From Bacteroidota bacterium (GTDB lineage Bacteria; Bacteroidota; Bacteroidia; UBA7662; JAIXUI01), in the NCBI GenBank assembly GCA_027484125.1, contig JAIXUI010000120.1:15441-79440 (forward strand): DNA of 64,000 nucleotides. The letters are read 5' to 3'. Under the pieces are notes generated by a model. It saw nothing but the letters and a program-made list of their open reading frames with translations. It made no database searches and was not told where the DNA came from. Shown one piece after another: positions 771-56,329 of the stretch; position 1 is the stretch's first letter; the number at the start of each line of letters is the position of its first letter. Both the position numbers and the translations under genes were made by a program.

Positions 771-3700
771 TTACCGTGTTCTTTTGAACAACGCGTCCCT
801 TGTTTGAGTAGTGCCCAATTCAATTCGGTTGGTATCACCTTTTTTAGGTTTTTGAACGCGCTTGATAACCGCATCATTGAATTCCATGTTAGAGGAGATA
901 GCAGCAACCGATTCATTCTTGATGGTAAACAAGTAGTAGGCATTCTCTCCAATTTCAAGCATGAGGTTATAATCAACGGTCCCGAGGTTATTCAATTGAA
1001 TATCAAAGATTCCAGGGATTTTTTTACTGATGGGTTCGCCATTAAAATGAGCCAACCCCATCTTATCTACATTCTGCCACGCTTTATATTCCGGGAACCA
1101 CTCCATTTTAATATCGCTGAAGACTATCGCGCTTTTTAGCTCTCCAGAGGTCGGAAACACGGTACTTGAAGCTAAATCATCGACTACTTTACGCGCCTTA
1201 TCGGTTCCAACTAAATTATAAACCGCAGTACTTACCAATTCTCGATCATTCGCATAGTCCTCATAGTTAAATCCAACATCTAAAAGGGCGTTGGTCATTT
1301 TTTTCGAGGCCTCTTCAGGAAGATTAAGGTCCGCAAGAATGACTACATCGAGCACACATTTATTGGTGGCCAATGTGTAATCCATTTGTCCGGATACTTT
1401 AAACTTCTTAAACGCTTTGGGTTGAAGCATATAAAACAAGCCTTCTGCTTTGATGCTCTTGTCTTTGCTGACTATTCTCAGGAAAGAGCCCTCTGGTTCA
1501 TTTTCTAAAACTTTCAAAGAGTCACCGATAATATAGTCACCGCTGGCAGGATCCCACCGTATCACTCCACCTGTTAAAAACAGCATGGTGTCAGTCGGAT
1601 TGGTGAGTCCATTAAATACGAGCGGATACAGATAACCTGACGATTTATTGTAAGCCATGCCAACATAGAGAGGCTTATCATTCTGATCAAGCGGATTGGA
1701 GAATTTAACAAAAGGCTTCTTCGGATCTACGAGCTCGCGTATTTTGAATGGCGTGGGTGATAGCTCGGGAATCATCTTGCTTAAGTGAACCACTCCTGTA
1801 AATTCCAATTCCTGTCTATTTCCCTCTAGTTGAATGTTTCCGGAGAATTTAAATCCAGGATTGATTTCCAATAACGAATCCATGGTCACGATACCGGAAG
1901 CTTTGGTAATGCCTTTATCATCAACCCGGATATTGTTAAAACTTACATTTTGAGTTTTTCCAGTCAGGTTGGTATAATCGTAAACACCTTCAGCTGAATA
2001 CTTTCTTCTACCCTCTACATTGACCGAAGCTTTATAAATCCGGTGGGTTCTGTTGGTGGAATCCACGAAAATCTGAGCATTAAATAGCTTTTTCATTTTC
2101 GCTTCTTTTTCTATTTCAACTTTTCCTGAATCAGGAATTACTACTGCGTCGCCAGTATGGATTTCTTTTACCCCCTCTGCCTTAAGGATGTAATCATTGA
2201 AATCCATTTTGGCATACTCAGCTGTAAACTCAAATCCATCATGAGCAGGATTTTGTGAAACGAATCTGGCGTAGGTAGTTCCCTTAAAGCTAGGATTACC
2301 CAACACTAACTTTCTGTTTTTCATATCCCAATCGAATTCCCGCAAATAGGTAACGTATTGGTTAAAAGGTAAATCAACTTTGCTCTCTTCAATTGCAGAA
2401 GCAAAAATTCCTTTTTTGGCTGTAAAGTCAATTTTCGCTTTCATGTATTCCACTTTAAACGCCAGTAACTTAGGGTCAGAAGAGGCGAGTTTAAGAATTG
2501 CTGAATCTGCTTCCAATGAATTCTCTGCAAAAATGAAATACTTAGAGGTGAGCTCTTCTTTTCCATAAAACATCGAGCCATCACCGGTGATCCCTCTTGG
2601 TGTGTAGATTAAACTTCCGAAATAAGAAGTCTGATCTTCATACATGCGAAGTGGAGCGACCGGGCGGTAAGTGAGGTACAAACTATCCATATAAGGCTTC
2701 CACATGGAGTATCCATCTTTGCCGGTAGCCTGAGGAAAAGCGGGACTTGCCTTCTTTTCCAAGTCAAATTGGGCCAACATCCCCACTGCCGAATCCGGCA
2801 TAAACACATACTCATCGCTACTGTGCTTAGTATTCAGATACCGAACTTGCCCTTTTCCTTGCAAGCCTCCCATGTCAAGGCGAACTGTCTTAAAGAATGT
2901 GGCTTTTCCCTTGTACAAAGGATAACCTGCTGCCGGAGATTGATTTACAAATCCAAGTGAATAATCGGGCATCACTTTAAGAATTTCGGGTAGGTTTGGA
3001 ATGATTCCCCCAGAAAACAAGGTTCCGTTGAATTCCAAACCTTTAGAAACCGAAACATTGTCGAGCGAATCTAGGATGTATGGCTTTACTAAAAAGTAAA
3101 AGCGGTCTCTGGTATATACACCATCACGGATTTCAGGCCCATCGAAGTAAACGTAGCAATCTTTCTTGGAGTCGAAAATGGGGTATTTTTTGAGTGCCTT
3201 TTTTCCTGACTTATTCTTTGGGTCGTCAATAAATAAATCTCCATTGATGTTTGACATCACGGTTCTCAATGGAATCGCCTTTTTCCGCCCAAACTTGTCA
3301 ACTTCATCGGTAAACACCCTGAATCGGAGAGAATCTACGTTGTTAAATCTCATGGTGAAAGCATCATAATTAAAATTGAAGCCGTCGCCATAGAAATCCA
3401 ATGCCCCTGCTCTAACCTGACCTTCCATTTCAATGTCACGGTTTTTCTTTAAGGTGAGCTGATTGCCGCGTGGTACCAAATAAACTTGGTGGCTATCGCT
3501 TAACAACGCTATAGGAACTCCTTTAATCAACAATTTCTTGTCTTCGATATTGAGCTCTGCATTGGGCTCACTATTGGTGCGAGATACAAACCTGATGACA
3601 TCAAAGTCAATTTTCCCACCACTCGCGTCCAAATATTTAAAAGTTTTGTCTTGTACAAGCACCACTTCATTGACTCTGTCATATTGAATAAATCCTTGAC

Positions 3701-5150
3701 TGGCCAATGAGAGCAATAATGACCTAACAGCATCCAAGCTTACCTTCATGTAATTGGCAAAGCCTCCGGTACCAAAGGTTCTATCTTTAACGATGCTGCA
3801 ATACCCTTTCAATCGCGCCAAAGGATGATAAGAGGCGATACTTTGGATTTCTCTGAATTCTTGCATGGAAAAGAAATCCTTTGAAGTAAAAACAGCTTGA
3901 GATTCTCCGGTACCAACGATAGATCTGAAGAGTAATTTGGGTTCGTCAATATTCCAGATAATTGCCTCTGCATTAATATCTAATTGATGATAAGAATTGG
4001 AAAAGGCACTTTTATTCATGTTGCTCTTTTCTATGAATAAACTCAATTGACGCTTCGATGCGTTGAAACGTGTGGTTAATCCGGGATGATAAATGGAGTC
4101 TTTATCTAGATAAATGGTCGTAGCTGCTGCATCAGCAATCAAATCTTCACGTTTTATGGTGAATAGCTTTGATTGAGCGCGGATAGCTATTTGATTGTTC
4201 TTGATAATTTGTATTTCTGCTGTAGCATTTTCCGGAGCAAGACAAATGTACTTGTTACCTTCAATGGCATATCGGCCGAAGTAGTTTACATTAGGGAATA
4301 TTTCTTTGATAAGAATAGCTTGTCCGAATGAAGTAAAACGAGGATAAGTAAATGTTTCTCGTTTATTTCCGGCTTGTACCTGATCAACAAAAGATCCCGT
4401 GAGCGTTTTTCCTCCAAGTTTATCAAGATAAAGCATGGCGGTATCCGCAACCAACTCGGGCTGACGAAGCAATACATTGTAACGTTGAAGTTGACAATAG
4501 AGGGAATCTCCGGAATATCCTAATCGTCTAAAGTCTATTTTTCCGCCGGTCCCGGTTACTTTTTGATCATTGGTTGAAAAAACAAATCGTGTATCAGAGA
4601 GCAAAAGTGAATCCTGACTGTAATTGCAGATTAAATCTGCTTTCTCGTATTTAATCACTGCTTTACCATCTTCGAAGGCAAAATCGAATCGATCTGCTTC
4701 TGCTTTCCATGTTACCGCATTCGTTTGATATAGTATGGATGATTTCAACACCAATTCGGCTGAAGTACAAAAGAGTTCGTATGGTTTAAATCCTTTAGAA
4801 TTTAAACTATCCAACACGCGGTGAAAGGCTAAAAACTGACTCTCTTCTGCCCCTTTCTCACCCAAAGCAACCAAGGCGTTCAGATAAAAACCAAAATAAG
4901 GCGCAACCGTCATTTTGCGCTGCTGCATATTTTGAACCTGTTTGATTGCAACCTGTTGCAAGTCAATGGTAAATCCTTGAAACACCTTGGGAAACTTGTT
5001 GATAAGAGGATTATAATCACTTCTCCCGGTTCCTTTAAGCAGGCTAACCACTTCTGGGATAAATTTTTCTACTTCAGAAGAAACTTTAACCTGCGCATGA
5101 GACAATTGAATATTCCAGAGCAGGAGGATGAGCAGAAGAAGCTTTCTCAT
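771..5150 (-). CDS. Large secreted beta-rich protein of unknown function (about 1459 aa)
   Basis: ORF track gives 771..5183; the likely start is ATG 5150 (MRKLLLLILLLWNIQLSHA/QV signal peptide), 2 nt after the prmA stop. No recognisable catalytic motif. Confidence 0.85.
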   Translation of the reverse strand: MRKLLLLILLLWNIQLSHAQVKVSSEVEKFIPEVVSLLKGTGRSDYNPLINKFPKVFQGFTIDLQQVAIKQVQNMQQRKMTVAPYFGFYLNALVALGEKGAEESQFLAFHRVLDSLNSKGFKPYELFCTSAELVLKSSILYQTNAVTWKAEADRFDFAFEDGKAVIKYEKADLICNYSQDSLLLSDTRFVFSTNDQKVTGTGGKIDFRRLGYSGDSLYCQLQRYNVLLRQPELVADTAMLYLDKLGGKTLTGSFVDQVQAGNKRETFTYPRFTSFGQAILIKEIFPNVNYFGRYAIEGNKYICLAPENATAEIQIIKNNQIAIRAQSKLFTIKREDLIADAAATTIYLDKDSIYHPGLTTRFNASKRQLSLFIEKSNMNKSAFSNSYHQLDINAEAIIWNIDEPKLLFRSIVGTGESQAVFTSKDFFSMQEFREIQSIASYHPLARLKGYCSIVKDRTFGTGGFANYMKVSLDAVRSLLLSLASQGFIQYDRVNEVVLVQDKTFKYLDASGGKIDFDVIRFVSRTNSEPNAELNIEDKKLLIKGVPIALLSDSHQVYLVPRGNQLTLKKNRDIEMEGQVRAGALDFYGDGFNFNYDAFTMRFNNVDSLRFRVFTDEVDKFGRKKAIPLRTVMSNINGDLFIDDPKNKSGKKALKKYPIFDSKKDCYVYFDGPEIRDGVYTRDRFYFLVKPYILDSLDNVSVSKGLEFNGTLFSGGIIPNLPEILKVMPDYSLGFVNQSPAAGYPLYKGKATFFKTVRLDMGGLQGKGQVRYLNTKHSSDEYVFMPDSAVGMLAQFDLEKKASPAFPQATGKDGYSMWKPYMDSLYLTYRPVAPLRMYEDQTSYFGSLIYTPRGITGDGSMFYGKEELTSKYFIFAENSLEADSAILKLASSDPKLLAFKVEYMKAKIDFTAKKGIFASAIEESKVDLPFNQYVTYLREFDWDMKNRKLVLGNPSFKGTTYARFVSQNPAHDGFEFTAEYAKMDFNDYILKAEGVKEIHTGDAVVIPDSGKVEIEKEAKMKKLFNAQIFVDSTNRTHRIYKASVNVEGRRKYSAEGVYDYTNLTGKTQNVSFNNIRVDDKGITKASGIVTMDSLLEINPGFKFSGNIQLEGNRQELEFTGVVHLSKMIPELSPTPFKIRELVDPKKPFVKFSNPLDQNDKPLYVGMAYNKSSGYLYPLVFNGLTNPTDTMLFLTGGVIRWDPASGDYIIGDSLKVLENEPEGSFLRIVSKDKSIKAEGLFYMLQPKAFKKFKVSGQMDYTLATNKCVLDVVILADLNLPEEASKKMTNALLDVGFNYEDYANDRELVSTAVYNLVGTDKARKVVDDLASSTVFPTSGELKSAIVFSDIKMEWFPEYKAWQNVDKMGLAHFNGEPISKKIPGIFDIQLNNLGTVDYNLMLEIGENAYYLFTIKNESVAAISSNMEFNDAVIKRVQKPKKGDTNRIELGTTQTRDALFKRTR

Positions 5151-5152
5151 TA

Positions 5153-5974
5153 TCAATTTTTTAAAAATCTTAAACACGCCCAATTATGGAGCGTAGAGGT
5201 GTGCAAAAGCAAAAATCCATTCTTTTCGGCGATGGATTCCAAATGTGAAATGTCTTCCGTATAAAAACCACTTAAAAGCAATACCCCCCCGGAATTGAGG
5301 TGTTTGGCGTATGCTGGAATATCTTCAGAAAGTATATTTCGGTTGATATTGGCGATAAAAATATCAAAAGTACCAAGCGAATCTAAAGTGCTAGCATCAC
5401 CTAGCATGACCTCTAATTGCGAAAAACCATTTCTATCTCGATTCTCAATAGCATTTTCATAACACCATGGATCGTTATCAATGGCGTATGCTTCATGGGC
5501 TCCCAACTTTAAAGCGTACAAAGCAAGAATTCCGGTACCGGAACCCATATCCATTACACGCTTACCAGCAACCTCGAGTTCTGATATTTGACGAATCATC
5601 AATTCGGTAGTAGCGTGATGCCCCGTACCAAACGACATTTTTGGCTCAATGATTAACTCATGCGCATAACCTTCTTCTTGAGAATGAAATCCGGCACGAA
5701 TAAGGCATAAGGGCCAAATACGAACTGGGTCATAGAATTTCTCCCACTCTGCATTCCAATTGATGTCTGGTAAAGGTTCCCAAGCCTTAATCTGCGCTCC
5801 AAAACGGGTGCAAATTTCTTCTGTAGCGGCCCTATCGAAAGTATCTACTTGCACATAGGCCAGCAATTCACCTTCCTTTTCCTCGAAGGAATCAAATCCT
5901 TCTTCCCCAAATAGTGCAACTAAAATGTCCGGATCTGACTCATTCAGCTGGATACTGACTTGTAAATAACCCAT
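5153..5974 (-). CDS. prmA: 50S ribosomal protein L11 methyltransferase
   Basis: IEPKMSFGTGHHATT, DMGSGTGILA SAM-binding motif, ANINRNIL. Confidence 0.95.
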   Translation of the reverse strand: MGYLQVSIQLNESDPDILVALFGEEGFDSFEEKEGELLAYVQVDTFDRAATEEICTRFGAQIKAWEPLPDINWNAEWEKFYDPVRIWPLCLIRAGFHSQEEGYAHELIIEPKMSFGTGHHATTELMIRQISELEVAGKRVMDMGSGTGILALYALKLGAHEAYAIDNDPWCYENAIENRDRNGFSQLEVMLGDASTLDSLGTFDIFIANINRNILSEDIPAYAKHLNSGGVLLLSGFYTEDISHLESIAEKNGFLLLHTSTLHNWACLRFLKN

Positions 5975-19195: not shown

Positions 19196-19199
19196 AGGG

Positions 19200-19207
19200 C
19201 AAAAATA
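19200..19207 (-). promoter_or_regulatory. -7 element (TATTTTTG) for the DUF3467-tatC unit
   Basis: TAnnTTTG 4 nt upstream of the ATG, adjoining the rpoC terminator T-tract. Confidence 0.6.
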
Positions 19208-19208
19208 G

Positions 19209-19240
19209 AAAAGAGCCGGTCTTTTGAACCGGCTCTTTTT
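19209..19240 (-). terminator. Intrinsic terminator after rpoC
   Basis: AAAAGAGCCGG...CCGGCTCTTTT inverted repeat with T-runs on both strands. Confidence 0.85.
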
Positions 19241-19258
19241 GTTTCTGTTAAACTTAGC

Positions 19259-32473: not shown

Positions 32474-33367
32474 TTAAGACCTTGGATGAAAATGATGATA
32501 AACCTCCAACAGCCTCTCAACACTCAGGTTCGTGTAAACTTGGGTCGCTGCTAGCGAACTGTGTCCTAATAATTCTTTTACAGCGTTCAAATCAGCGCCT
32601 TGGTTGAGTAAGTGAGTTGCAAAGGAATGACGGAAGGCATGTGGGCTTTTACTCTCTGCCTCCTGTACCAAAGTTAAAAAATCATGAACAACACGGTGCA
32701 CCAACATGGGGTAAATTTTTGCTCCTTTTTGTGTCACTATCAATGGCGACTCTTGGCTTGTTGGCGACAATGTTTCCAACCATTCTTCAATCAGTGCCAC
32801 AACTTTCTCAGGTACAGGGACTAAACGTTCTTTTTTCCTTTTTCCGAAGACTTTAATGACACCCTTAGCCGAATCAAAATCTTTCACTTTTAGATTAACA
32901 AGCTCCTCCCTTCGTATCCCAGCACCATATAAAAGCATAATGATTAACTGATTTCTCTTCCCCTCAAACGTCTGAGTACACTCAGGCCTTTCTGCTTCAA
33001 AACGTGCTTCTAGTGCACTCTCTAGCGGTTTTTGTGGTATGGAGCGAGGAAGCAACACCGGTGTTTGTGCAAGTTTTAACCTCGATACCGGATTACTGAT
33101 GATGAATCCTTCTTTTTGCAAATAGCGATAGTACGCTCGAAGGGATGATTTTTTTCTATTTACAGTCTTTGGCGATAGTCCTGAACGTAAAACAGCCACC
33201 AACCAAGATTTAACTTGGGAATTGGTGGCTGTATCGGGACTATCAGAGCCGAATTGGTTCAGAAGATAGTCGGAAAATTGCTGTAAATCGGTAGCGTAAG
33301 CAGTTACTGTCTTCTCAGAATATCGCTTTATTAAAGACAGATGCCTGAGAAACGCCTCAGCATGCAT
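32474..33367 (-). CDS. xerC: Housekeeping tyrosine recombinase (XerC-like)
   Basis: LLYGAGIRREEL (R), GKRKKER (K), SPHAFRHSFATHLL (HxxR), GHSSLAATQVY (H, Y). Confidence 0.85.
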   Translation of the reverse strand: MHAEAFLRHLSLIKRYSEKTVTAYATDLQQFSDYLLNQFGSDSPDTATNSQVKSWLVAVLRSGLSPKTVNRKKSSLRAYYRYLQKEGFIISNPVSRLKLAQTPVLLPRSIPQKPLESALEARFEAERPECTQTFEGKRNQLIIMLLYGAGIRREELVNLKVKDFDSAKGVIKVFGKRKKERLVPVPEKVVALIEEWLETLSPTSQESPLIVTQKGAKIYPMLVHRVVHDFLTLVQEAESKSPHAFRHSFATHLLNQGADLNAVKELLGHSSLAATQVYTNLSVERLLEVYHHFHPRS

Positions 33368-33387
33368 GTGCCTGTACGAGATTCTGG

Positions 33388-33585
33388 TTAGAGCCCCTGC
33401 TCCATGCGCTGCATCTGCTGGCGATATGCGGCACGGATGAGCACCTGACGACGCTTCACAGAAGGCTTTTCAAAAGCTTGGCGTACGCGGAGCTCTTTGA
33501 GAACTCCTGTTTTCTCGAACTTCTTCTTGAAGCGCTTAAGCGCTTTGTCAACGGTTTCGTTGTCTTTTACCTCAATGATAATCAT
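33388..33585 (-). CDS. rpsU: 30S ribosomal protein S21
   Basis: DKALKRFKKKFEKTGVLKELR, FEKPSVKRR. Confidence 0.97.
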   Translation of the reverse strand: MIIIEVKDNETVDKALKRFKKKFEKTGVLKELRVRQAFEKPSVKRRQVLIRAAYRQQMQRMEQGL

Positions 33586-34817: not shown

Positions 34818-35732
34818 TCACGGCTTACTCAAGTAAGGTTTAAGTTTTTCGAGCTTTAGGCTATCTAAAAACAACCATTTTTCTGGAGACATGCGCTCCG
34901 GGACGTGTTTGTTTTGTTCTCGGTACCTAATAATTTTTGAAGCGATGTATCTGCCTATGTATGGGTGTTTCCCAAGCGTTTCTCTATCAGCATTGATCCA
35001 GTCTAAAAGCTGATTGGGAGATGAAGACACTTCTAATTGGGGAGCAATTTTCATATAAACTGCTGTGTCTAATCCAAAAACTTCCAGCAGTTGCTCTCTT
35101 CTTACAAAACCGCCAAGTTTGTTCCGATACTTAACAATTCGGGAAGCTAAAACAGGTCCAATATCTGGTAGTCTTTCCCATGCAGCCGAATCTGCATGAT
35201 TAAGCGACAAAATTCTAACGTTTTTGGATGCCACAGGCATTCTTCGTGCTGTTTCATCCGGTAGGTTAGAACGGTTAAATTCAAGTGCTGGAATAGAACG
35301 AGAAAATCGAGCATTATGCTGAAGTAGTTCTTTATCAGCTTCTCTAAGACCATAAATTCGATCAAAGTCTTCTTTCCGACGGAATTGCCCTCCGCTATTC
35401 CTGTATTTAATAATACGAGTTGCAATCCAAGGTTTTACACCAAGTAAAACTAGACTATCCGCAGTAACGGTCATTGGATCAAAAGGAAAACCTTGAGCAT
35501 TAGATTTAGGCTTAGAGTAGTTTGGCTTGTACCGATAATTGGGTTGAACATTACGCTTCAACTTCAAACTATCTGCCCAAGGCTTCCAAACTTCAGAGGG
35601 AATTTCATCATTGCTTGGCCAGTTTAGGACAATGAGGTCAGTAGCAGCTAGAATGCTCAGCCATGCAAGTGCTCCTTTTAGCTCATGTGCACTAACCTGA
35701 AGTTCATTGAAAAGTTCCTTCAGTGATTTCAT
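34818..35732 (-). CDS. ComEA-like helix-hairpin-helix DNA-binding protein
   Basis: Three HhH units (LGVKPWIATRIIKYR, LPDIGPVLASRIVKYR, HPYIGRYIASKII) after an N-terminal TM segment. Confidence 0.85.
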   Translation of the reverse strand: MKSLKELFNELQVSAHELKGALAWLSILAATDLIVLNWPSNDEIPSEVWKPWADSLKLKRNVQPNYRYKPNYSKPKSNAQGFPFDPMTVTADSLVLLGVKPWIATRIIKYRNSGGQFRRKEDFDRIYGLREADKELLQHNARFSRSIPALEFNRSNLPDETARRMPVASKNVRILSLNHADSAAWERLPDIGPVLASRIVKYRNKLGGFVRREQLLEVFGLDTAVYMKIAPQLEVSSSPNQLLDWINADRETLGKHPYIGRYIASKIIRYREQNKHVPERMSPEKWLFLDSLKLEKLKPYLSKP

Positions 35733-36650: not shown

Positions 36651-36869
36651 TTATAGGTCCCAAATGGAAGGACGACGATTAAAATGTTGCCGAATTTGCA
36701 TCCAAAAAGCCAAAGTAAAGTAAAGCACAAGGGGAGAGCCCAGTGTGAGAAAAGAGGCATATATGAACACTTTTCTAAGTGAAGTAGAAGAAATCCCTAC
36801 CCTATCCGCAACTTCGGTGCAAACTCCGAAGGAGTACTTTTCCAATCGAGTGATGAGCGTGGTTTTCAT
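36651..36869 (-). CDS. PspC domain-containing small membrane protein
   Basis: FGVCTEVADRVGI...LRKVFIYASFLTLGSPLVLY is the Bacteroidota PspC pattern. Confidence 0.8.
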   Translation of the reverse strand: MKTTLITRLEKYSFGVCTEVADRVGISSTSLRKVFIYASFLTLGSPLVLYFTLAFWMQIRQHFNRRPSIWDL

Positions 36870-36923
36870 GGTTTCGAAAATGATGAATTTATCGCGTTAG
36901 TTCAACATCTACTTAAGAATTAG

Positions 36924-36982
36924 TGTACCAAATTCTGGAAAAGTCCCATAATCAGGACAAGCACTGTCCGAAAATTGGTACA
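36924..36982. promoter_or_regulatory. Three tandem 18-bp palindromic sites (TGTCC-N8-GGACA-like), putative enhancer-binding-protein UAS
   Basis: TGTAC-CAAATTCT-GGAAA (36924-41), AGTCC-CATAATCA-GGACA (36942-59), TGTCC-GAAAATTG-GTACA (36965-82). Confidence 0.6.
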
Positions 36983-37085
36983 CTTTTACATTCAAGCTAA
37001 GTTACTCAACTGAAATTCTCGGACTTCAATGTTAGGTTAGGATTGAATAAAGGGCTATCGAAACAAAATTTCCACACAACAAAAA

Positions 37086-37103
37086 TTTGGCACACTAATT
37101 GAA
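37086..37103 (+). promoter_or_regulatory. Putative sigma54 (-24/-12) promoter
   Basis: TTTGGCACACTAATTGAA: GG at 37089-90, exactly 10 nt, then GA at 37101-02 (consensus TGGCAC-N5-TTGC with the C replaced by A). Confidence 0.7.
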
Positions 37104-37113
37104 GCAAGGCAGA

Positions 37114-37171
37114 CATCTTTAATGGGGTTAATGAAGCGGGCTGGTCGAAATGATCGGCCCGCTTCTTTTTT
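37114..37171 (+). ncRNA. Putative sigma54-dependent small RNA (about 58 nt)
   Basis: The promoter predicts +1 near 37114. A 19-nt single-stranded CATCTTTAATGGGGTTAAT segment is followed by a + strand terminator; no credible ORF. Confidence 0.6.
37133..37171 (+). terminator. Intrinsic terminator, + strand polarity
   Basis: GAAGCGGGCTGGTC-GAAAT-GATCGGCCCGCTTC followed by TTTTTT; the - strand has no U-run. Confidence 0.8.
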
Positions 37172-37174
37172 GCG

Positions 37175-38287
37175 TTATTCTGTTGGCCCTACCCATTTAA
37201 TCCGGGCGCCTGGCAAACTCTTTATTAATCCTTCCAACTCAAGTTGTAGTAAAGTTGCTGCAAGTGTTGAGTTGTTTAGTTCTAAAGCACCAGCAAGGCT
37301 ATCAATAAAGTTACTCCCAGAATTGACGAGCAGTTTAATCTTGGCTTCAACCTCGTTGAGTGGCCTTGAAAATGTTATCGTCAACTGTTGATGCGAATTG
37401 CTATCCTGATCCCAATTCATGGCTTGAATCAAGTCGGTTGACTTGGTTACTAAGGCTGCTTTATTTTGCCGAATAAGCTCTAAGCATCCTTCAGAAAACG
37501 CATCGTTTATTCTTCCAGGTACAGCATAAACATCTCTGTTATATCCTAAAGCAAGTTCTGCTGTAATTAATGCACCCCCCGATTTTGAGGCCTCTACCAC
37601 TAATACTGCATCAGCCAATCCTGCGATAATCCTATTTCTTCTAGGGAAATTTTCCTTAACCAGCTTGGTAAATGGAGGAAATTCCGAGACAAGTCCGCCA
37701 TTTTCAATCATTCTCATCGCCAGTCTATGATGATCAGATGGATAAATTTTATCAAGGCCATGCGCTAAAATTCCAACGGTTGGCAACCCAACCTTTACGG
37801 CTTGGCGATGAGCAGCACTATCTATCCCATAAGCCAAACCGGAGACTATCAATACTTGCATTTTTTCCGCCAATTGCGCAATGAACTGCTCTGTGGTTCT
37901 TTGGCCATGAGCGGTGGCAGATCTTGTTCCGACAACCGCTAAAGCCCTTGGAGAATTTAAAGAACATGGACCTTTTTTAAACAATACCAAAGGCGAGTCC
38001 TCGCACTCTCGAAGTCTATTTGGGTATTCTTGAAGACTTATGCCGATGATCTGAACATCTTCCTTTTTACAAGTTTTTACAACCATTTCGGCTGCTCTTA
38101 AAGTATCAGCATGTAGCAGTTTGTTTACTTTAGAAGGGCCTAATCCGGGAATTCGAAGAAGGTTTTTAGATCCTGACTGAAAAATGGACTCGGCATCCAC
38201 AAAAGTTCTGAGTAAACCACGAGCTTGGCGTGGTCCTAACCCAGAGGTGACAGCCAAAGCAACTTCGAATATATTTTCTAAGGACAC
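37175..38287 (-). CDS. dprA: DNA-processing protein DprA
   Basis: LAVVGTR, IVSGLAYGID, NFPRRNRIIAGL, VVEASKSGGALITA, AVPGRI; GTG start. Confidence 0.95.
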   Translation of the reverse strand: MSLENIFEVALAVTSGLGPRQARGLLRTFVDAESIFQSGSKNLLRIPGLGPSKVNKLLHADTLRAAEMVVKTCKKEDVQIIGISLQEYPNRLRECEDSPLVLFKKGPCSLNSPRALAVVGTRSATAHGQRTTEQFIAQLAEKMQVLIVSGLAYGIDSAAHRQAVKVGLPTVGILAHGLDKIYPSDHHRLAMRMIENGGLVSEFPPFTKLVKENFPRRNRIIAGLADAVLVVEASKSGGALITAELALGYNRDVYAVPGRINDAFSEGCLELIRQNKAALVTKSTDLIQAMNWDQDSNSHQQLTITFSRPLNEVEAKIKLLVNSGSNFIDSLAGALELNNSTLAATLLQLELEGLIKSLPGARIKWVGPTE

Positions 38288-43340: not shown

Positions 43341-43411
43341 AAAGTTGAGTGATGGTTTTTAACCAAAGATGTTGAGGCGAAGCATAAGAAGAAAAAGATA
43401 TATAAGACATA

Positions 43412-43447
43412 TAAAACACTGTTTATCAGCACATAAACAGTGTTTTA
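43412..43447. repeat. Perfect 15-bp inverted repeat in the divergent promoter region
   Basis: TAAAACACTGTTTAT-cagcac-ATAAACAGTGTTTTA. Confidence 0.85.
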
Positions 43448-43517
43448 CCAAATTTACCACTATTGGAAAAGCGAGAAGGCAGGAGAATAAACTTGATTAA
43501 ATAGAACACCGAAAATT

Positions 43518-48695: not shown

Positions 48696-50501
48696 CTAGC
48701 TTTTGAACCAACCATTAAGCGCCTTCAACCAAAAATGAAGGCGCTTTTGTGTTTCTGGCAATGCATCAGAATTCCAATTATTAGCTAAATAATTCTGAAG
48801 CTGGTTGCCCAATTCTATTGCATGATGTTTAGTCTGATTCCGTTCGTGTTCGTAATCATCCCGAATACTTGACAATTGAAAACGTTCATTTTCTAACTCT
48901 TCGTTATTAGACTTGATTAATTGACGAGTTTCATACCATTTATTATAAACCCATAATAGAATGATAGTTAATACAAAAAGTATCAACAAAATAATGTAGC
49001 GATTCAACCTTTTGTAAGTCAAAGTTTCATCATGAATATTTGAAAGTTGATTAGACAACTTAAACAATTGTGTTTCATATTGTCGAATCTGGGAAAACTT
49101 AAATCCTTCCTTAACAATCAATTGGCCTTCATTTCTCCAATGAGAATACTTCTTTCGAAACTTATACGCTAATTCGAAGTTTCCAAGACTAGACTCCAAA
49201 TCTACCCTTTGTTTGTAAACATTTGACAAATAAGGACGTTCTTCAGGAAACTCCTCTAATCTCAATAGAGCGGAATCATTATAAAAGACGGCTTGTTGAA
49301 TATCCCTTTTCTTAAAATAGTAATCTGAAATACGTACATAGGCTTTTATCTCTTCATGTAAATGATTCTGCATTTTTCGAAGATGCAAATTATCGATAGC
49401 ATGCGCAATTGCTTTATCATAATTACCAAAGAGTGCTTCAGCAGTAGATAAATCTACACTAGCGTTAGCCATAAAATTTTTATCCTGCAAATCAGTAGCA
49501 TACCGGTAAGTTAAATTGGCATAATGGATGACGGAATCTCTATTTGGGTGATTACGATTTTCCATGTGCCAACTTGCCAATCTTGTGACCGCTTCAGTAG
49601 CCCAAAAGATTAAGTTCTTTTTCAGGGCATAATCATATAATTGAAATAATCTTCTTTGCTCTTCATCACGATTAAGTGAATTAAAAGCTAATTCAGAATA
49701 AAAGAGCAGTTTTCTACAATGAATCTCAGCCCATTTTCTACTAACATCAGGAATTTGACCAAGTACTTTAAGTGATTCTGCTTGTTTGCCCTCATAAAGT
49801 AATTCATCAGCATACCTAATTTGACAGAGATAACGACGCTTGGTCCAGCCTAGGGCTTGATACGCCAAAATGGCTTTCTCATAATACAGAAAAGCTACAT
49901 CAGCTTTTCGGAAATTACACTCATAATGCCCCAATTGTTCATAAGTAATAGCATTTTCAATCAAGCGCATTGGATTATCCTTTACTAATTGCAGCAGTAT
50001 AGTCTTTTGTTTTTGATATTCAGGAACATTCCAGGATCGAGCATGAATCCGCATCCACATATAAGATTGCTGCCATTGCCAAGTAGCACCGGCATTAGAA
50101 GAATCACCTAAACTTTGAACTAAACGATAACACTCTTTCAAAGAATCAACTTCATTGGCAATAAGAAACTGATGAAACAACACCTGAAAATAAGCTGAAT
50201 CCCGTCTCGAAATACTTTTAAGCAATGAAGAATTGGTAGAATATGCCGAAAACAACCACCCACTATTCATATTTATAACAGATTCTCCTGTTATTCGTAA
50301 AATTTCCGATTCACTAAATGTATGATCTTTGAACCCAGGAATGTTTGCTTTTTGAAAGTTTAAAGTATCATAAGAAAGTAACAACATTGACTTCCTACTT
50401 AAGGAAGCAGAATTAGATTGCTGACCTTGGTTTGAGCAAGAAAGTACACTTACATACACTAAAGCAACCCAACTAATCCAATAGCATTTATTAATAGTCA
50501 T
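48696..50501 (-). CDS. TPR-repeat membrane protein (sensor-like ectodomain, one TM, short cytoplasmic coiled coil)
   Basis: Lipobox-like VLS/C22, helical TPR-like repeats, TM YIILLILFVLTIILLWVY, about 80 aa tail without kinase motifs; AT-rich. Confidence 0.65.
   Translation of the reverse strand: MTINKCYWISWVALVYVSVLSCSNQGQQSNSASLSRKSMLLLSYDTLNFQKANIPGFKDHTFSESEILRITGESVINMNSGWLFSAYSTNSSLLKSISRRDSAYFQVLFHQFLIANEVDSLKECYRLVQSLGDSSNAGATWQWQQSYMWMRIHARSWNVPEYQKQKTILLQLVKDNPMRLIENAITYEQLGHYECNFRKADVAFLYYEKAILAYQALGWTKRRYLCQIRYADELLYEGKQAESLKVLGQIPDVSRKWAEIHCRKLLFYSELAFNSLNRDEEQRRLFQLYDYALKKNLIFWATEAVTRLASWHMENRNHPNRDSVIHYANLTYRYATDLQDKNFMANASVDLSTAEALFGNYDKAIAHAIDNLHLRKMQNHLHEEIKAYVRISDYYFKKRDIQQAVFYNDSALLRLEEFPEERPYLSNVYKQRVDLESSLGNFELAYKFRKKYSHWRNEGQLIVKEGFKFSQIRQYETQLFKLSNQLSNIHDETLTYKRLNRYIILLILFVLTIILLWVYNKWYETRQLIKSNNEELENERFQLSSIRDDYEHERNQTKHHAIELGNQLQNYLANNWNSDALPETQKRLHFWLKALNGWFKS
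48717..48754 (+). terminator. Terminator of the GH13 gene, lying inside the 3' end of the opposite-strand TPR ORF
   Basis: Perfect 11-bp stem AAGCGCCTTCA/TGAAGGCGCTT followed by TTGTGTTT. Confidence 0.7.
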
Positions 50502-52777
50502 CTAAATTCAAATTTAATTCTTGCTAGATCCAAATCTTTTTCAAAATGAGTTTTAATATTCAACTCATTTATTAACTCAGCAATAACTATTTTACTCGTT
50601 CTATTCTGCAATTCAGCAGATGTTTTACTAAAAATCGATTCACTTATATCTTCATAAACAAGCAATTCTATTAAATCATGCTCATACAACAAAGACGATT
50701 CCATTGAAAACCCTTTTTCGAATAACCTGATAATTAGCTCTTTTCTATCATGACTTTTTGCCATAAATCGTCTAACTAAAATATCAATTAGAATTTTCAA
50801 TTTATGAACATCTTCATTCCAAATTAATGACTCAGGAACAAAAATATCAACCGTACAAGGATGAAATATTTTTAAAGTTTTCCAAGATGCCTCCCAATCT
50901 GACTTGAAGGAAATAGGAGCAACAGATTCTTTACTTGAATTTAAACCTTTATCGGTTGTTTTTATGTTTAAAGCTTTTTTAAGATAGTTAAGCGAATTTC
51001 TAAGATGGTAATACAAGATAACATTAAATCTTAGAACCGCTATTCCTTTTCTGTCTGAAAGCGATGACCAGCTTTCGAATAACTCGAATTCTAGTTTTTT
51101 ATATTTCAAATATTGATCTGTCATCTTTTTTAATTGTATGTAATCAGCTTCGAGTTTTATTTTCTGATTTTCAACTTCTAATAAATCGTTTTTAATCTTC
51201 TCAATTTTAGCAATATCACTTCGAATTCTTAAATAGAATATAATTATTAAAAATACTAGAATCAGAAATGCTGTACCAACAAGAAATAAAAGCTTAATTT
51301 TCGCTTCAGAAAGTTTATCCTTAGATGTCTGTAATTCAGCTTCTCTGCTTATAACATTCCTTTGGAGCTCATTAATTTTTTTTATTTTTGAATCATCAAC
51401 TAAGTTTATGCTATTTTGCAGCTCATCATATCGGTTTGCCATTATGTTTGCGCCTTTAAAATCACCGATACTGGCTAACCAGTCTGATTTTAGTTGATAC
51501 AGCGATAGCTTAGCTTGTTTATTTGGATATGCTTCAATTAGCTTTTCCTGTTCCTCAAACAACTCCTCTAGCAACTTTACACTACCTACATTCAATAGCA
51601 AACGAATTTTTTCATCGATAGTAACTATAAGCTCCGTTGTATCATTACTACCTCTTTCAAGCTTTTCTGTAATTTCTAAATAATTTAATGCCTCATTCAC
51701 TAACCCAAGAGCCGAAGACGCTTTTGAAGCCATGAAATACGCTTGATGGGTTAGCACATCATCATTAGCAGCATTCACAAGACTTATGGCATTGTGAACC
51801 AATGAATCAGCGAGCTTCCATTCTTTTGATAGCAATGCAGCTTCAGACAGACCTAAAAATGCTTTGAGTTTGTTTTTTGGGCTGTTGATTTCTGTTGCTA
51901 TTTTCAATAAAGTTTGGAAGTTTTCCTTGGCTAATGTCGTTTCACCTAATCTAAGCTGAGCCCTGGCGGCTAGTGTGTAACCATTGCATGCTGTGAGAGG
52001 ACCTGGAATCTTTAACAAGATGTCATTCGCTTTTTCAACGAAATAGCGTACGGAATCTAGTTGGTCATTGATAAGACAAACATCTGCCAATTCAACTAGT
52101 AATTTTGCTTGAAAGCCACCCCATCCAATTCTCTCAGCTATTTTCAACGCCTCTCTGTAGTAAAAGGAAGACCATTCAAAATGTCCCTGGTTGTAGGCGA
52201 TATCACCGGATTTAGTTAAGAATTTCAACAATAAATCCTGGCTTAAACCAGTATTTTTTAAACTATCGATGACCTTATTAAGGGATTGAGGGGCATGATG
52301 AATAGCATCAGTTCTAAACCTCAGATAAGCGCGTTCTATTTCCAGATTTGTAGGTAGTGAGTGGTCAGCCCTGTCTATCAAGCGTTTAGCCGAATCAAAT
52401 TGGTCAAGGCTAATTAGAAAGTCAGCTTTCCTGAGTTGTATAGCAGCAACTAACGAATCATCCGTGGCTTTCGAAAAGGCAAGAGCCAATAAACTGTCTA
52501 TATCTTGTTGTGATTCCTTCCAATAGATTAATTTTTCTGAGGCTTGTAGTAACAACATGGTAGCTTCCGCTTCCATTTCTTTGTTTACCAGTGCGCGATT
52601 TTCAATTTTATGGTACCAGAATTTGAAATCTTGGTATTGCAGCGCATTTAATCCCACCATGGCATTGAGCGCTTCTTCTTTCAAGGTCAATTTGGATTGG
52701 CCAAACCGGCAACTTACCACTACTGTAAGTGCTACTGACAGTAGTAAAAATTGAACTAAAAACCACACCCGCCTCAT
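50498..52777 (-). CDS. TPR-repeat membrane protein with degenerate histidine-kinase-like C-terminus
   Basis: Lipobox-like VVS/C23, TPR-like repeats, TM LLFLVGTAFLILVFLIIIFY, coiled coil and YHLRNSL (H-box-like); no intact N or G boxes. Confidence 0.65.
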   Translation of the reverse strand: MRRVWFLVQFLLLSVALTVVVSCRFGQSKLTLKEEALNAMVGLNALQYQDFKFWYHKIENRALVNKEMEAEATMLLLQASEKLIYWKESQQDIDSLLALAFSKATDDSLVAAIQLRKADFLISLDQFDSAKRLIDRADHSLPTNLEIERAYLRFRTDAIHHAPQSLNKVIDSLKNTGLSQDLLLKFLTKSGDIAYNQGHFEWSSFYYREALKIAERIGWGGFQAKLLVELADVCLINDQLDSVRYFVEKANDILLKIPGPLTACNGYTLAARAQLRLGETTLAKENFQTLLKIATEINSPKNKLKAFLGLSEAALLSKEWKLADSLVHNAISLVNAANDDVLTHQAYFMASKASSALGLVNEALNYLEITEKLERGSNDTTELIVTIDEKIRLLLNVGSVKLLEELFEEQEKLIEAYPNKQAKLSLYQLKSDWLASIGDFKGANIMANRYDELQNSINLVDDSKIKKINELQRNVISREAELQTSKDKLSEAKIKLLFLVGTAFLILVFLIIIFYLRIRSDIAKIEKIKNDLLEVENQKIKLEADYIQLKKMTDQYLKYKKLEFELFESWSSLSDRKGIAVLRFNVILYYHLRNSLNYLKKALNIKTTDKGLNSSKESVAPISFKSDWEASWKTLKIFHPCTVDIFVPESLIWNEDVHKLKILIDILVRRFMAKSHDRKELIIRLFEKGFSMESSLLYEHDLIELLVYEDISESIFSKTSAELQNRTSKIVIAELINELNIKTHFEKDLDLARIKFEFR

Positions 52778-53650: not shown

Positions 53651-53853
53651 CAGAGCACGAATTCAGTAACCTTGCTATACGGAAGTTGATCGATGAAAGC
53701 TTTGGCAGCCTCCACCCTGTCGCCAAATCCACATTCCTGCAGCCCTTTTTCAGGACGATCGGCACGAAAGTAGGCGACTAATGTAAAATTACTGTCACGA
53801 ACTTGGACGTAATCGGGGATTTTAGCCTTCCCTTTGATTTTGAGGATATACAA
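53650..53853 (-). CDS. Small conserved Bacteroidota protein (67 aa)
   Basis: YILKIKGKAKIPDYVQVRD..FTLVAYFRADRP, a recalled conserved family; TTG start; the stop overlaps the ftsE ATG. Confidence 0.7.
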   Translation of the reverse strand: MYILKIKGKAKIPDYVQVRDSNFTLVAYFRADRPEKGLQECGFGDRVEAAKAFIDQLPYSKVTEFVL

Positions 53854-53895
53854 GTTGATATGTCGTTTAACTTAGCGCCAAATTACAAACCCTCC

Positions 53896-55593
53896 ATGAC
53901 ATCAAAAGCACTTTATCTTCCAATTCTCAGCATTGCTTTTACTGCATGTGGATCATCAGCACTTTTAAAGAACCCTGATGCGTTTGCCGTAAAGTGTGAG
54001 CCTAAGATTTTAGAAAGAAAAGGCGACAGTGTTTCTTTTGAATTAAGCGCCACCATTCCCCCTAAAATTTTCGACAAAAAAGCTCAAGTGGTGGTGAAGC
54101 CCTATTTGGCAGTAGGTCAAAAACAGATTGCTTTGCCAGAGTTACTTCTTAAAGGCGAAAAAGTTGAAGGTGAAGTACAAACGGTCAATTTTGAAAAGGG
54201 CGGAAAGGTAAAGTATAACGGCACTTTCGCCTATCAAGATGGCATGGAACAGTCTGAATTGATGGCTGAACCAACACTTGTATGGAAAAAGAAAAAACAT
54301 TCCTTGAAAGCCAGAAAGTTAGCTCCAGGGGTAATTGTAAGCAGCGATTTAGCTGAAAACATGCGCCCATGGAAAGCGCTACCTATTGTACCAATTGATT
54401 CTCTCACAGAACATAAAGCCACCATCTTCTTCCTTAAAGACCAAGCGGAGTTTAGAAGTACAGAGAAAAAGCGCAAAGAAGTTGATGCGTTGGTAAAGAT
54501 GCTGAAAGGCCAAGTGGACATCAGAGATGTGCAACTTCGTGCTTTTGCATCACCTGATGGAGAGCTAGATCGCAACAGTAACCTCGCCGATGAGCGCGCT
54601 GAAAATGTGAATCAGTTTGTTTATGAAATCCTCAAAAAGAAAAAAGTAAACAAGGTTGACGAAGATGGCTTCATCAAAGATGTGAAAACCGCTGAAGACT
54701 GGGTTGGATTTTCCCAATTGGTGTCCCAAAACAATTGGAAAGGGAAGTCCATGACCGAAGCTATTTTAGCGACCACAGTTGATGAAAACGAAAAAGAGAA
54801 ATTGCTTAGGGAGAATAAAGAGAATTTCCAATTTCTGGCAGATCAAATTTTACCAAAATTACGACGCACAGAAGTGGTAATCCGAACTTCTCCACTTGAG
54901 AAAAGTTTGGGAGAACTAGTAGAGCAAGCAGTGAAAGACCCTTCAAAAATGACGGAGTCGGAATTGATAAAGGCTTATAACTTCACACAAAACGCCCCTT
55001 TAAAATCAGGCATTGCTGCCTATTTGGGTATGCGCTACCCGAATAACGCTCCATATTTGCACAACTCCGGAGTTGCGTTTATGCAGCTTAGTCCACCTAA
55101 TACCAACATGGCGATAAATGCTTTTTCAAGAGCGGCAGCAATGGAAGGCTCTGACCCACTTTCATTAGAACATTGGGGGATGGCCTTGCTGGAATCCGGA
55201 AAAACAGAAGAAGGATTAAAGAAACTGATTGCTGCTAACCAGAAAAACGGAACACTCGGAGCCGCAGCCATTGCGCCACTGTTACAGCTTGGCAGGTATG
55301 AAGAAGCACTTACGATTGCAAGCGCTACTAAGTGCACCTTTAACAAAGCTTTGGCAGAAATTTTAAATATGAAGCTGAATGATGCGGCTGAAACCATCCA
55401 GTGTGGCGAAAAAACGGCGCCTTTCTTCTACCTCCGTGCTATCATGGCAGCGAGAAAAGGCGATACAGAATTGTTAGGAACCAGCTTGGTACGTGCTATT
55501 AGCCAAGATAGCCGCTGGAGAGAAAAAGCTCGTTCTGATGCTGAATTCAGCCTTTACCGCGATCAAGAGTTTTTCAAGGTAGCCACCCGATGA
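53896..55593 (+). CDS. Lipoprotein with OmpA-like peptidoglycan-binding domain and C-terminal TPRs
   Basis: Start reassigned to 53896 (MTSKALYLPILSIAFTA/C). FASPDG...N..LADERA OmpA_C-like motif; TPR tail ending FYLRAIMAARKG...KARSDAEF. Confidence 0.75.
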   Translation: MTSKALYLPILSIAFTACGSSALLKNPDAFAVKCEPKILERKGDSVSFELSATIPPKIFDKKAQVVVKPYLAVGQKQIALPELLLKGEKVEGEVQTVNFEKGGKVKYNGTFAYQDGMEQSELMAEPTLVWKKKKHSLKARKLAPGVIVSSDLAENMRPWKALPIVPIDSLTEHKATIFFLKDQAEFRSTEKKRKEVDALVKMLKGQVDIRDVQLRAFASPDGELDRNSNLADERAENVNQFVYEILKKKKVNKVDEDGFIKDVKTAEDWVGFSQLVSQNNWKGKSMTEAILATTVDENEKEKLLRENKENFQFLADQILPKLRRTEVVIRTSPLEKSLGELVEQAVKDPSKMTESELIKAYNFTQNAPLKSGIAAYLGMRYPNNAPYLHNSGVAFMQLSPPNTNMAINAFSRAAAMEGSDPLSLEHWGMALLESGKTEEGLKKLIAANQKNGTLGAAAIAPLLQLGRYEEALTIASATKCTFNKALAEILNMKLNDAAETIQCGEKTAPFFYLRAIMAARKGDTELLGTSLVRAISQDSRWREKARSDAEFSLYRDQEFFKVATR

Positions 55594-56295: not shown

Positions 56296-56329
56296 AAAAA
56301 AAGGGCAACCCGTGGGTTGCCCTTTTTTT
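56296..56329. terminator. Bidirectional intrinsic terminator
   Basis: A7-GGGCAACC-CGTG-GGTTGCCC-T7 between convergent genes. Confidence 0.9.

Follow-up and report, generated by a model that had tools for sequence, protein, structure and literature searches.

A conserved candidate small RNA gene of about 58 nucleotides next to dprA in a freshwater Bacteroidota lineage

We describe a candidate non-coding RNA gene on the + strand of a stretch of Bacteroidota DNA of 64,000 nucleotides, the whole of which we call the window. The candidate is about 58 nt long (37113/4-37171) and lies inside a 305-bp spacer. Comparative evidence makes it very probable that this + strand segment is a functional non-coding RNA element. 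We also consider it reasonably likely, with less assurance, that the element is an independent sRNA gene whose product acts in trans through a seed at its 5' end. Such an RNA would consist of an invariant, unstructured 5' segment of 19-20 nt and a GC-rich Rho-independent terminator, and of nothing else. It would be transcribed from 37113-37114 by a conserved promoter of the -24/-12 type, which is possibly sigma-54 dependent, with the palindromes found upstream as a possible activator site for this promoter. Through its 5' segment it would then pair in trans with at least one mRNA encoded outside the window. Its architecture is that of 5'-seed sRNAs such as RybB, OmrA, and GibS. The features discussed below are collected in Table 1.

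Table 1. Features of the candidate RNA gene and its surroundings, with the sequences that join the promoter-like motif to the conserved block in five lineages
Feature	Position	Strand	Evidence or sequence
Palindromic half-site cluster, GTGTAC ... GTCC-N8-GGACA-N5-TGTCC ... GTACAC	36922-36984		inverted repeat search
Promoter-like TTGGCAC-N5-TTG (GG-N10-G, -24/-12 spacing)	37087-37101	+	conservation, fixed spacing
Putative seed, weakly structured 5' segment, (A)CAUCUUUAAUGGGGUUAAU	37113-37132	+	conservation across lineages
Terminator hairpin, 14-15 bp, 9 G-C pairs	37133-37165	+	terminator scan
T6 tract, putative U-tail of intrinsic terminator	37166-37171	+	run of T after stem
pspC-like gene	36651-36869	-	72 aa, PspC domain
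dprA	37175-38287	-	Pfam DNA_processg_A, E = 2e-74; convergent neighbor
-24 motif to block, window			TTGGCACACTAATTGAAGCAAGGCAGAC, then ATC
-24 motif to block, L002			TTGGCACGCTTATTGAAAATAAGAAAAC, then ATC
-24 motif to block, L003			TTGGCATAGGCTTTGTAGTAGGTTTAAC, then ATC
-24 motif to block, L005			TTGGCATGGTGATTGTTTTATAAATAAT, then ATC
-24 motif to block, X17 contig			TTGGCACGCATATTGTAAAAAGTTGAAC, then ATC

Results

The locus and its relatives

The stop codon of the convergent gene dprA is found 3 nt past the T-tract and 9 nt from the hairpin stem, and because this last distance is so short the 3' end of dprA shares the hairpin. To the left of the element are the pspC-like gene and an rmlD-like gene, both of which diverge from it. 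The rest of the window carries rpoB/rpoC, ribosomal protein genes, tuf, a tRNA cluster, a SusC-like TonB-dependent receptor, and a gene for RNase III, together with proteins that have the T9SS C-terminal sorting domains typical of Bacteroidota. The closest named DprA proteins are those of Pedobacter and Arcticibacter, with 45-47% identity. The sequence of the locus was found again in freshwater and lake metagenomes, and the DNA run X14 contains the organism at about 190x.

Relatives of the locus were recovered through DprA homologues of 68-78% identity, which gave the lineages L002, L003, L004, and L005 (the last being GCA_943373175.1). The order TonB-dependent receptor, dprA, element, pspC-like gene, rmlD-like gene is common to L002, L003, and L005. 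The contig of L004 stops just past dprA, before the pspC-like gene, and is without RNA positions 2-29. A loose contig end in the DNA run X17 provides a fifth lineage for the promoter motif. The four-fold degenerate sites of dprA are 22-41% identical between lineages, which indicates that neutral sites are saturated, and the remaining intergenic region has diverged to the point of being largely unalignable. A search of GTDB genomes for related loci with a single DprA protein gave no match, and a separate search with the PspC-like protein gave one relative only. The more distant DprA neighborhoods (47% identity) have a different context, in which the element is absent.

The neighboring genes have some traits of their own. 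Between the window and L002, the orthologues of the 72-aa PspC-domain protein share 93% identity, versus 76% for the adjacent DprA. The PspC-like gene, which is uncalled on several public contigs, also has a start region that is conserved as DNA (AAAATGATGAA on the + strand). Competence-associated domains are encoded on both sides of the candidate, in a ComEA-like gene with the triple helix-hairpin-helix domain HHH_3 (34818-35732, - strand) and in dprA (37175-38287, - strand), so that the candidate sits between the two in one short row of - strand genes. These two genes could suggest a DNA uptake sequence, a reading that is out because the motif is present once in 64 kb. The only ORF at the element (37122-37391, 89 aa), which runs antisense into dprA, was rejected as a small gene, since conservation there is independent of codon position.

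An invariant 5' segment and an orphan terminator

The + strand reads CATCTTTAATGGGGTTAAT at 37114-37132, with the reverse complement ATTAACCCCATTAAAGATG, exactly as the initial annotation had given both, and this 19-mer has a single occurrence in the window. The 18 nt at 37115-37132 are identical in four lineages (window, L002, L003, and L005), and in the same four the identity extends over 28 consecutive positions of the RNA (2-29). The block (C/T)ATCTTTAATGGGGTTAATGAAGCGGGCT is the same in every lineage that reaches it, with the exception of its first base. This base, 37114, is C in four of the five lineages and T in L005, and it is the sole base of the block that varies between lineages; the A at 37113 is present in all five. 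The segment has just one predicted local hairpin, of -0.9 kcal/mol. The proposal that the 5' arm is a seed thus holds in so far as the arm is constrained and nearly unstructured, which suggests an accessible conserved seed; for its more specific form, an anti-start-codon seed, we found no support (see below). A single base change was seen in the dominant strain of the lake metagenome run X17, namely, A to T at 37131 (RNA or seed position 18). It is the only difference that this strain has of its own over about 700 bp, and its two other differences from the window are common to all four runs.

Some properties of this segment that might seem telling are readily produced by chance. A CAT that reads ATG on the opposite strand is expected at about 1 in 64 positions, such that the CAU/AUG relation carries no statistical weight alone, and arithmetic from base composition gives a G-poor complement to about 12% of random 16-mers of this genome. 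What exceeds chance is the conservation, not the relation to AUG or the G-poor composition.

Immediately 3' of CATCTTTAATGGGGTTAAT is the hairpin GAAGCGGGCTGGTC-GAAAT-GATCGGCCCGCTTC, followed by TTTTTT. Its 15 counted pairs include 9 G-C pairs, and no other terminator-like site in the 60 kb scanned is as strong. The whole RNA of about 58-59 nt folds at -27.9 kcal/mol (z = -5.7 versus shuffles). On the + strand the stem is complete in all four lineages, at -25.8 to -28.4 kcal/mol, with compensatory or wobble changes in its upper part (G-C to A-U in L003, U·G to U-A, and G·U to G-C). The T run is conserved too, each of the five sequences, even the short L004, having five to seven T there. On the - strand the stem is 4-8 kcal/mol weaker in three of the four lineages, because G·U becomes A·C there, and what comes after the hairpin is ATTAACCCC, with no U-tract. 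All the other strong terminators of the hairpin-plus-T-run type in the 60 kb scanned are downstream of a gene on the same strand (rpoC, a gene of 1860 aa, an amylase-like gene, and an NlpC/P60 gene). The hairpin at 37133-37165 is the only strong one without a coding gene upstream on its own strand. Two genuine bidirectional terminators of the window (19208-19240 and 56296-56329) are each flanked by a run at either end. Together, the invariant block, the covarying stem, the stability confined to the + strand, and the orphan terminator imply that a + strand RNA with its 3' end at 37166-37171 is very probably under selection.

Could the same observations arise without an sRNA? The gene dprA needs a terminator, and its stop codon is close to the stem. 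The hairpin might therefore be the terminator of dprA, maybe a bidirectional one, and the 19-mer a DNA element or protein site, such as the promoter or operator of a - strand operon of the pspC-like and rmlD-like genes starting near 37110. The - strand sequence TAAAGATG (37121 to 37114) indeed fits TAnnTTTG at 4/6 bases, in the register that a start at 37110 calls for, and an RNA contig from run X3 ends at this very position. However, a 4/6 match has a chance of about 4% in one register, or about 15-20% with shifts, and drops to 3/6 in L005. There is no conserved -33 element either, the bases in question being those of the variable hairpin loop. A promoter need not have 28 invariant bases and a covarying stem, and both the conserved T-tract and the -24/-12 motif described below would be left unexplained. 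As for the hairpin, the - strand tail (AUUAACCCC, without a U-tract) and the weaker - strand stem do not fit a plain or bidirectional dprA terminator. We therefore regard this explanation as very unlikely.

A promoter-like motif and upstream palindromes

In each of the five lineages (window, L002, L003, L005, and X17), the motif TTGGCA(C/T)-N5-TTG precedes ATCTTT by exactly 13 nt, a spacer whose sequence is unrelated from one lineage to another. The bare pattern is expected by chance about 1.5 times per window, and the evidence is therefore in its conservation and fixed spacing. It resembles the sigma-54 consensus TGGCAC-N5-TTGC (PMC12316311). Promoters of this -24/-12 class are active in Bacteroidota at chaperone and envelope-stress genes (PMC9723704, PMC12316311). 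The GG of the -24 element, within TTGGCA(C/T), is present in all five lineages. The -12 base is A in the window and L002 and T in L003, L005, and the X17 lineage, and it is never C. At this position C is nearly universal in sigma-54 promoters. The window encodes no rpoN and no enhancer-binding protein gene. Given these data, we treat a sigma-54-type promoter for the RNA as a tentative assignment, whose chances are somewhat short of even. From the promoter geometry, the start site would be at 37113-37114 or several bases upstream.

Other promoter classes match the region poorly. In the sigma-A layout of Bacteroidota, TTTG is at -33 and TAnnTTTG at -7 (PMC7366714). Such a promoter for a +1 at 37113-37114 was rejected, since the sequence at -7, AAGCAAGG, has no relation to the box and is not kept between lineages. 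Just 9 nt separate the conserved TTTG from the TTG, a misfit with the sigma-A spacing of about 20 nt. A scan for sigma-70-type promoters, a model inapplicable to this phylum, gave nothing relevant.

A cluster of palindromic half-sites lies upstream of both divergent units, at 130-190 bp from the putative +1 and at 55-115 bp from the start of the pspC-like gene. In four lineages the half-sites are conserved and their spacers are free, and no RNA fold is consistent across lineages on either strand. We take the cluster for a candidate operator or enhancer with several protein sites, set between the divergent units. The palindromes are where an enhancer-binding protein would sit; they may equally serve the promoter of the pspC-like gene.

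RNA contigs over the locus

The expression data are unstranded Logan contigs, which show presence only. In the RNA-seq runs X1 to X4 no contig covers 37114-37171; since such libraries would lose an RNA of 58 nt, this absence weighs little against the candidate. Two contigs from polyA libraries are found next to the element, at 36817-37110 (X3, depth 8) and at 36784-36958 (X5, depth 58), and the flanking genes are nearly silent in both runs. The RNA at 36784-37110, which comes from freshwater libraries, spans the start codon of the pspC-like gene and about 240 nt upstream of it. It may be a long 5' leader of the pspC-like gene; otherwise it would be an antisense RNA or a precursor. In X3 the contig breaks off at 37110, 3-4 nt short of the conserved block. 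This end is unlikely to be an accident. It could reflect processing of a + strand RNA or a - strand start rather than a + strand start at 37114, and it is the main support both for a processed RNA and for the - strand start considered above.

A processed RNA would be the 3' end of a longer + strand transcript, starting at or before 36784, within the pspC-like gene or beyond it, and cleaved near 37110-37113. The precursor would be antisense to the start of pspC, and the sRNA would have no promoter of its own. The polyA contigs over nearly silent flanking genes are compatible with such a transcript, as is the halt of the X3 contig just before the block, if a short 3' fragment was lost in library preparation. 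But the contigs, being unstranded, could equally be the leader of the pspC-like mRNA, and inspection by eye found no box of the TAnnTTTG type on the + strand upstream of 36784. Furthermore, an exact 13-nt spacing with a free spacer in five lineages resembles promoter geometry rather than an RNA feature. Hence, we consider a processed RNA unlikely and continue to favor an sRNA with its own promoter.

Searches for homologues

The candidate has no counterpart among the families searched. With Rfam 15, only tRNAs reached the gathering score in the window, and nothing overlapped 37114-37171 at E <= 10. The exact 19-mer has 8 matches in GTDB representatives, versus about 4 from chance alone (2 x 596e9 / 4^19). 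Seven of them, in unrelated bacteria, lack a hairpin and are due to chance or to coding sequence, and the contig of L005 is the sole true homologue. A 21-mer gave 0 matches in JGI metagenomes, which we take to mean that the clade is absent there. A covariance model of the RNA (R1) revealed no paralogue in the window and the related loci; its match at 19199-19256 is the rpoC terminator. The putative sRNA would thus be a new family of a kind of RNA that is already known.

Pairing at start codons

The initial annotation had proposed that the RNA covers the start codon and A-rich leader of mRNAs lacking a Shine-Dalgarno (SD) motif. Its premise is sound: GGAG, GAGG, or AGGA occurs in 1 of the 29 ATG leaders of the window, versus 11% in the background, and these leaders are G-poor and enriched in A at -11 to -14. 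The pairing itself is another matter. The C of the CAU that would face the AUG is the one varying base of the block, although its replacement in L005, a U, could still form a G·U wobble. We ran the suggested comparison with shuffled seeds over 46 start regions of the window (-25 to +13, alternative starts allowed), a sample that is probably less than 2% of the genes of the genome and gives low power, and it showed no enrichment. The mean best energy was -9.57 kcal/mol, versus -8.99 +/- 0.70 for 100 shuffled seeds, 21% of which did as well, and the best pairing was -15.2 kcal/mol, versus -15.0 +/- 1.8 for shuffled seeds.

Individual matches point the same way. The strongest non-self match on both strands of the window, at -18.8 kcal/mol, falls inside a coding sequence and not at a start codon. 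The top match among start regions, at a DUF3467 gene after rpoC, spans the AUG through seed positions 2-15 and is at chance level; in searches this family is about 70% identical across the phylum, and members from the clade are not separable. A pairing at the start region of a superoxide dismutase (SOD) gene (-12.2 kcal/mol) was discarded, as it is lost in the relatives. Pairing is weak at the start regions of dprA, the pspC-like, rmlD-like, and ComEA-like genes, and the TonB-dependent receptor gene. No conserved complementary target site was found in the window and in about 7 kb per relative. Of the original proposal, then, the + strand small RNA very probably stands, and the covering of start codons found no support in these 46 regions, where pairing is at the level of chance. 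The site paired by the seed may include a start codon; the data do not require it.

The RNA could also be real and act otherwise than by pairing with mRNAs at their initiation regions. To our knowledge, Bacteroidota are without Hfq and CsrA and use RRM proteins such as RbpB. The RNA might titrate or guide an RNA-binding protein of this sort, or it might target in cis the mRNA of the convergent gene dprA, to whose 3' end it is complementary. Most seeds can do with less than absolute invariance over about 18 nt, which would suit a site recognized by a protein. At the least, the hairpin is common to the sRNA and the 3' end of dprA, and the window encodes RNase III. In Bacteroides, RbpB is described as a global sRNA-binding protein (PMC11697453). 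Yet cis-antisense pairing is automatic and would not constrain a single-stranded arm, and we see no repeated motif for protein binding in an RNA this short. Long seeds are, moreover, in use in the phylum, as GibS shows (PMC7366714). We find an action of this kind quite improbable, and trans-acting base-pairing through the 5' segment is still the reading that we prefer.

Other observations in the window

Elsewhere in the window, a 65-aa gene at 33388-33585 (- strand) stands out in X1 by a very high metatranscriptome depth (300-560x) and by SNPs that fall on every third base. By eye its translation reads as ribosomal protein S21 (rpsU), and a hibernation factor and a XerC-like integrase are encoded next to it. 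A contig of X1 skips 152 nt, from 33231 to 33384. Four large ORFs, at 771-5183, 48696-50501, 50498-52777, and 53803-55593 (1470, 601, 759, and 596 aa, respectively), have no Pfam match at E <= 1e-5. Finally, an AT-rich, near-perfect hairpin of 16 bp, GTAAAACACTGTTTAT...ATAAACAGTGTTTTAT, occupies 43411-43448 (- strand), in the spacer that precedes a beta-ketoacyl synthase gene (Pfam ketoacyl-synt).

Discussion

We know of few Bacteroidota sRNAs characterized beyond gut Bacteroides, and of none in the abundant uncultured freshwater lineages. The candidate described here has unusually clean comparative support and, in its minimal form of a seed followed by a terminator, lends itself readily to testing. 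A -24/-12 promoter, if real, would tie sigma-54 signaling to post-transcriptional control in this phylum.

Sigma-54-dependent sRNAs are known in Proteobacteria, e.g., Qrr1-5, GlmY, and CrcZ. We found none reported for Bacteroidota in the literature searched, and possible sigma-54 control is the only feature of the candidate that could be new for the phylum. The likeness to sigma-54 promoters lies in the GG-N10-G pattern, with TGGCAC at -24, TTG at -14 to -12, and a fixed distance to the +1, and in the conserved palindromes 130-190 bp upstream, the usual position of an enhancer-binding protein. The difference is that the canonical C at -12 is replaced by A or T in all five lineages. In Flavobacterium psychrophilum, the motif SM4 corresponds to sigma-54 promoters (PMC9723704). 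One may go further and imagine a sigma-54-dependent stress sRNA, activated by an enhancer-binding protein at the palindromes, that silences SD-less mRNAs at their initiation regions. As a whole this scheme is on the unlikely side. Were it true, Bacteroidota would have their first regulatory sRNA under sigma-54. The RNA would belong to the sigma-54 regulon of chaperone and envelope-stress genes and would be analogous in function to RybB and MicA, which depend on sigma-E.

The Enterobacterial sRNAs RybB, MicA, and OmrA/B are short, with an invariant seed at the 5' end and then a Rho-independent terminator. They are transcribed under alternative sigma factors or stress regulators and depend on Hfq and on sigma-E or OmpR. 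The candidate resembles them in the layout of a 5' seed followed by a terminator. It differs in that their targets have SD sequences, and it has no sequence relation to them.

The closest precedent in mechanism is GibS of Bacteroides thetaiotaomicron, whose single-stranded 5' seed pairs across the start codons of SD-less mRNAs, its targets being BT_0771 and BT_3893 (PMC7366714). Its authors presented it as the first case in Bacteroidetes of sRNA repression at an SD-less translation initiation region (PMC7366714). The idea of start-codon pairing is thus a repeat of this precedent and not new. Both would be intergenic Bacteroidota sRNAs with their own start site, an intrinsic terminator, and a conserved single-stranded 5' seed. 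We liken the two by description and claim no homology. GibS, at about 145 nt, contains internal hairpins and has a seed of 30-50 nt, whereas the present RNA would be a seed plus terminator of about 58 nt. GibS is transcribed from a promoter with the PM2 motif and is restricted to Bacteroides, whereas the candidate has a -24/-12-like promoter and belongs to a freshwater clade.
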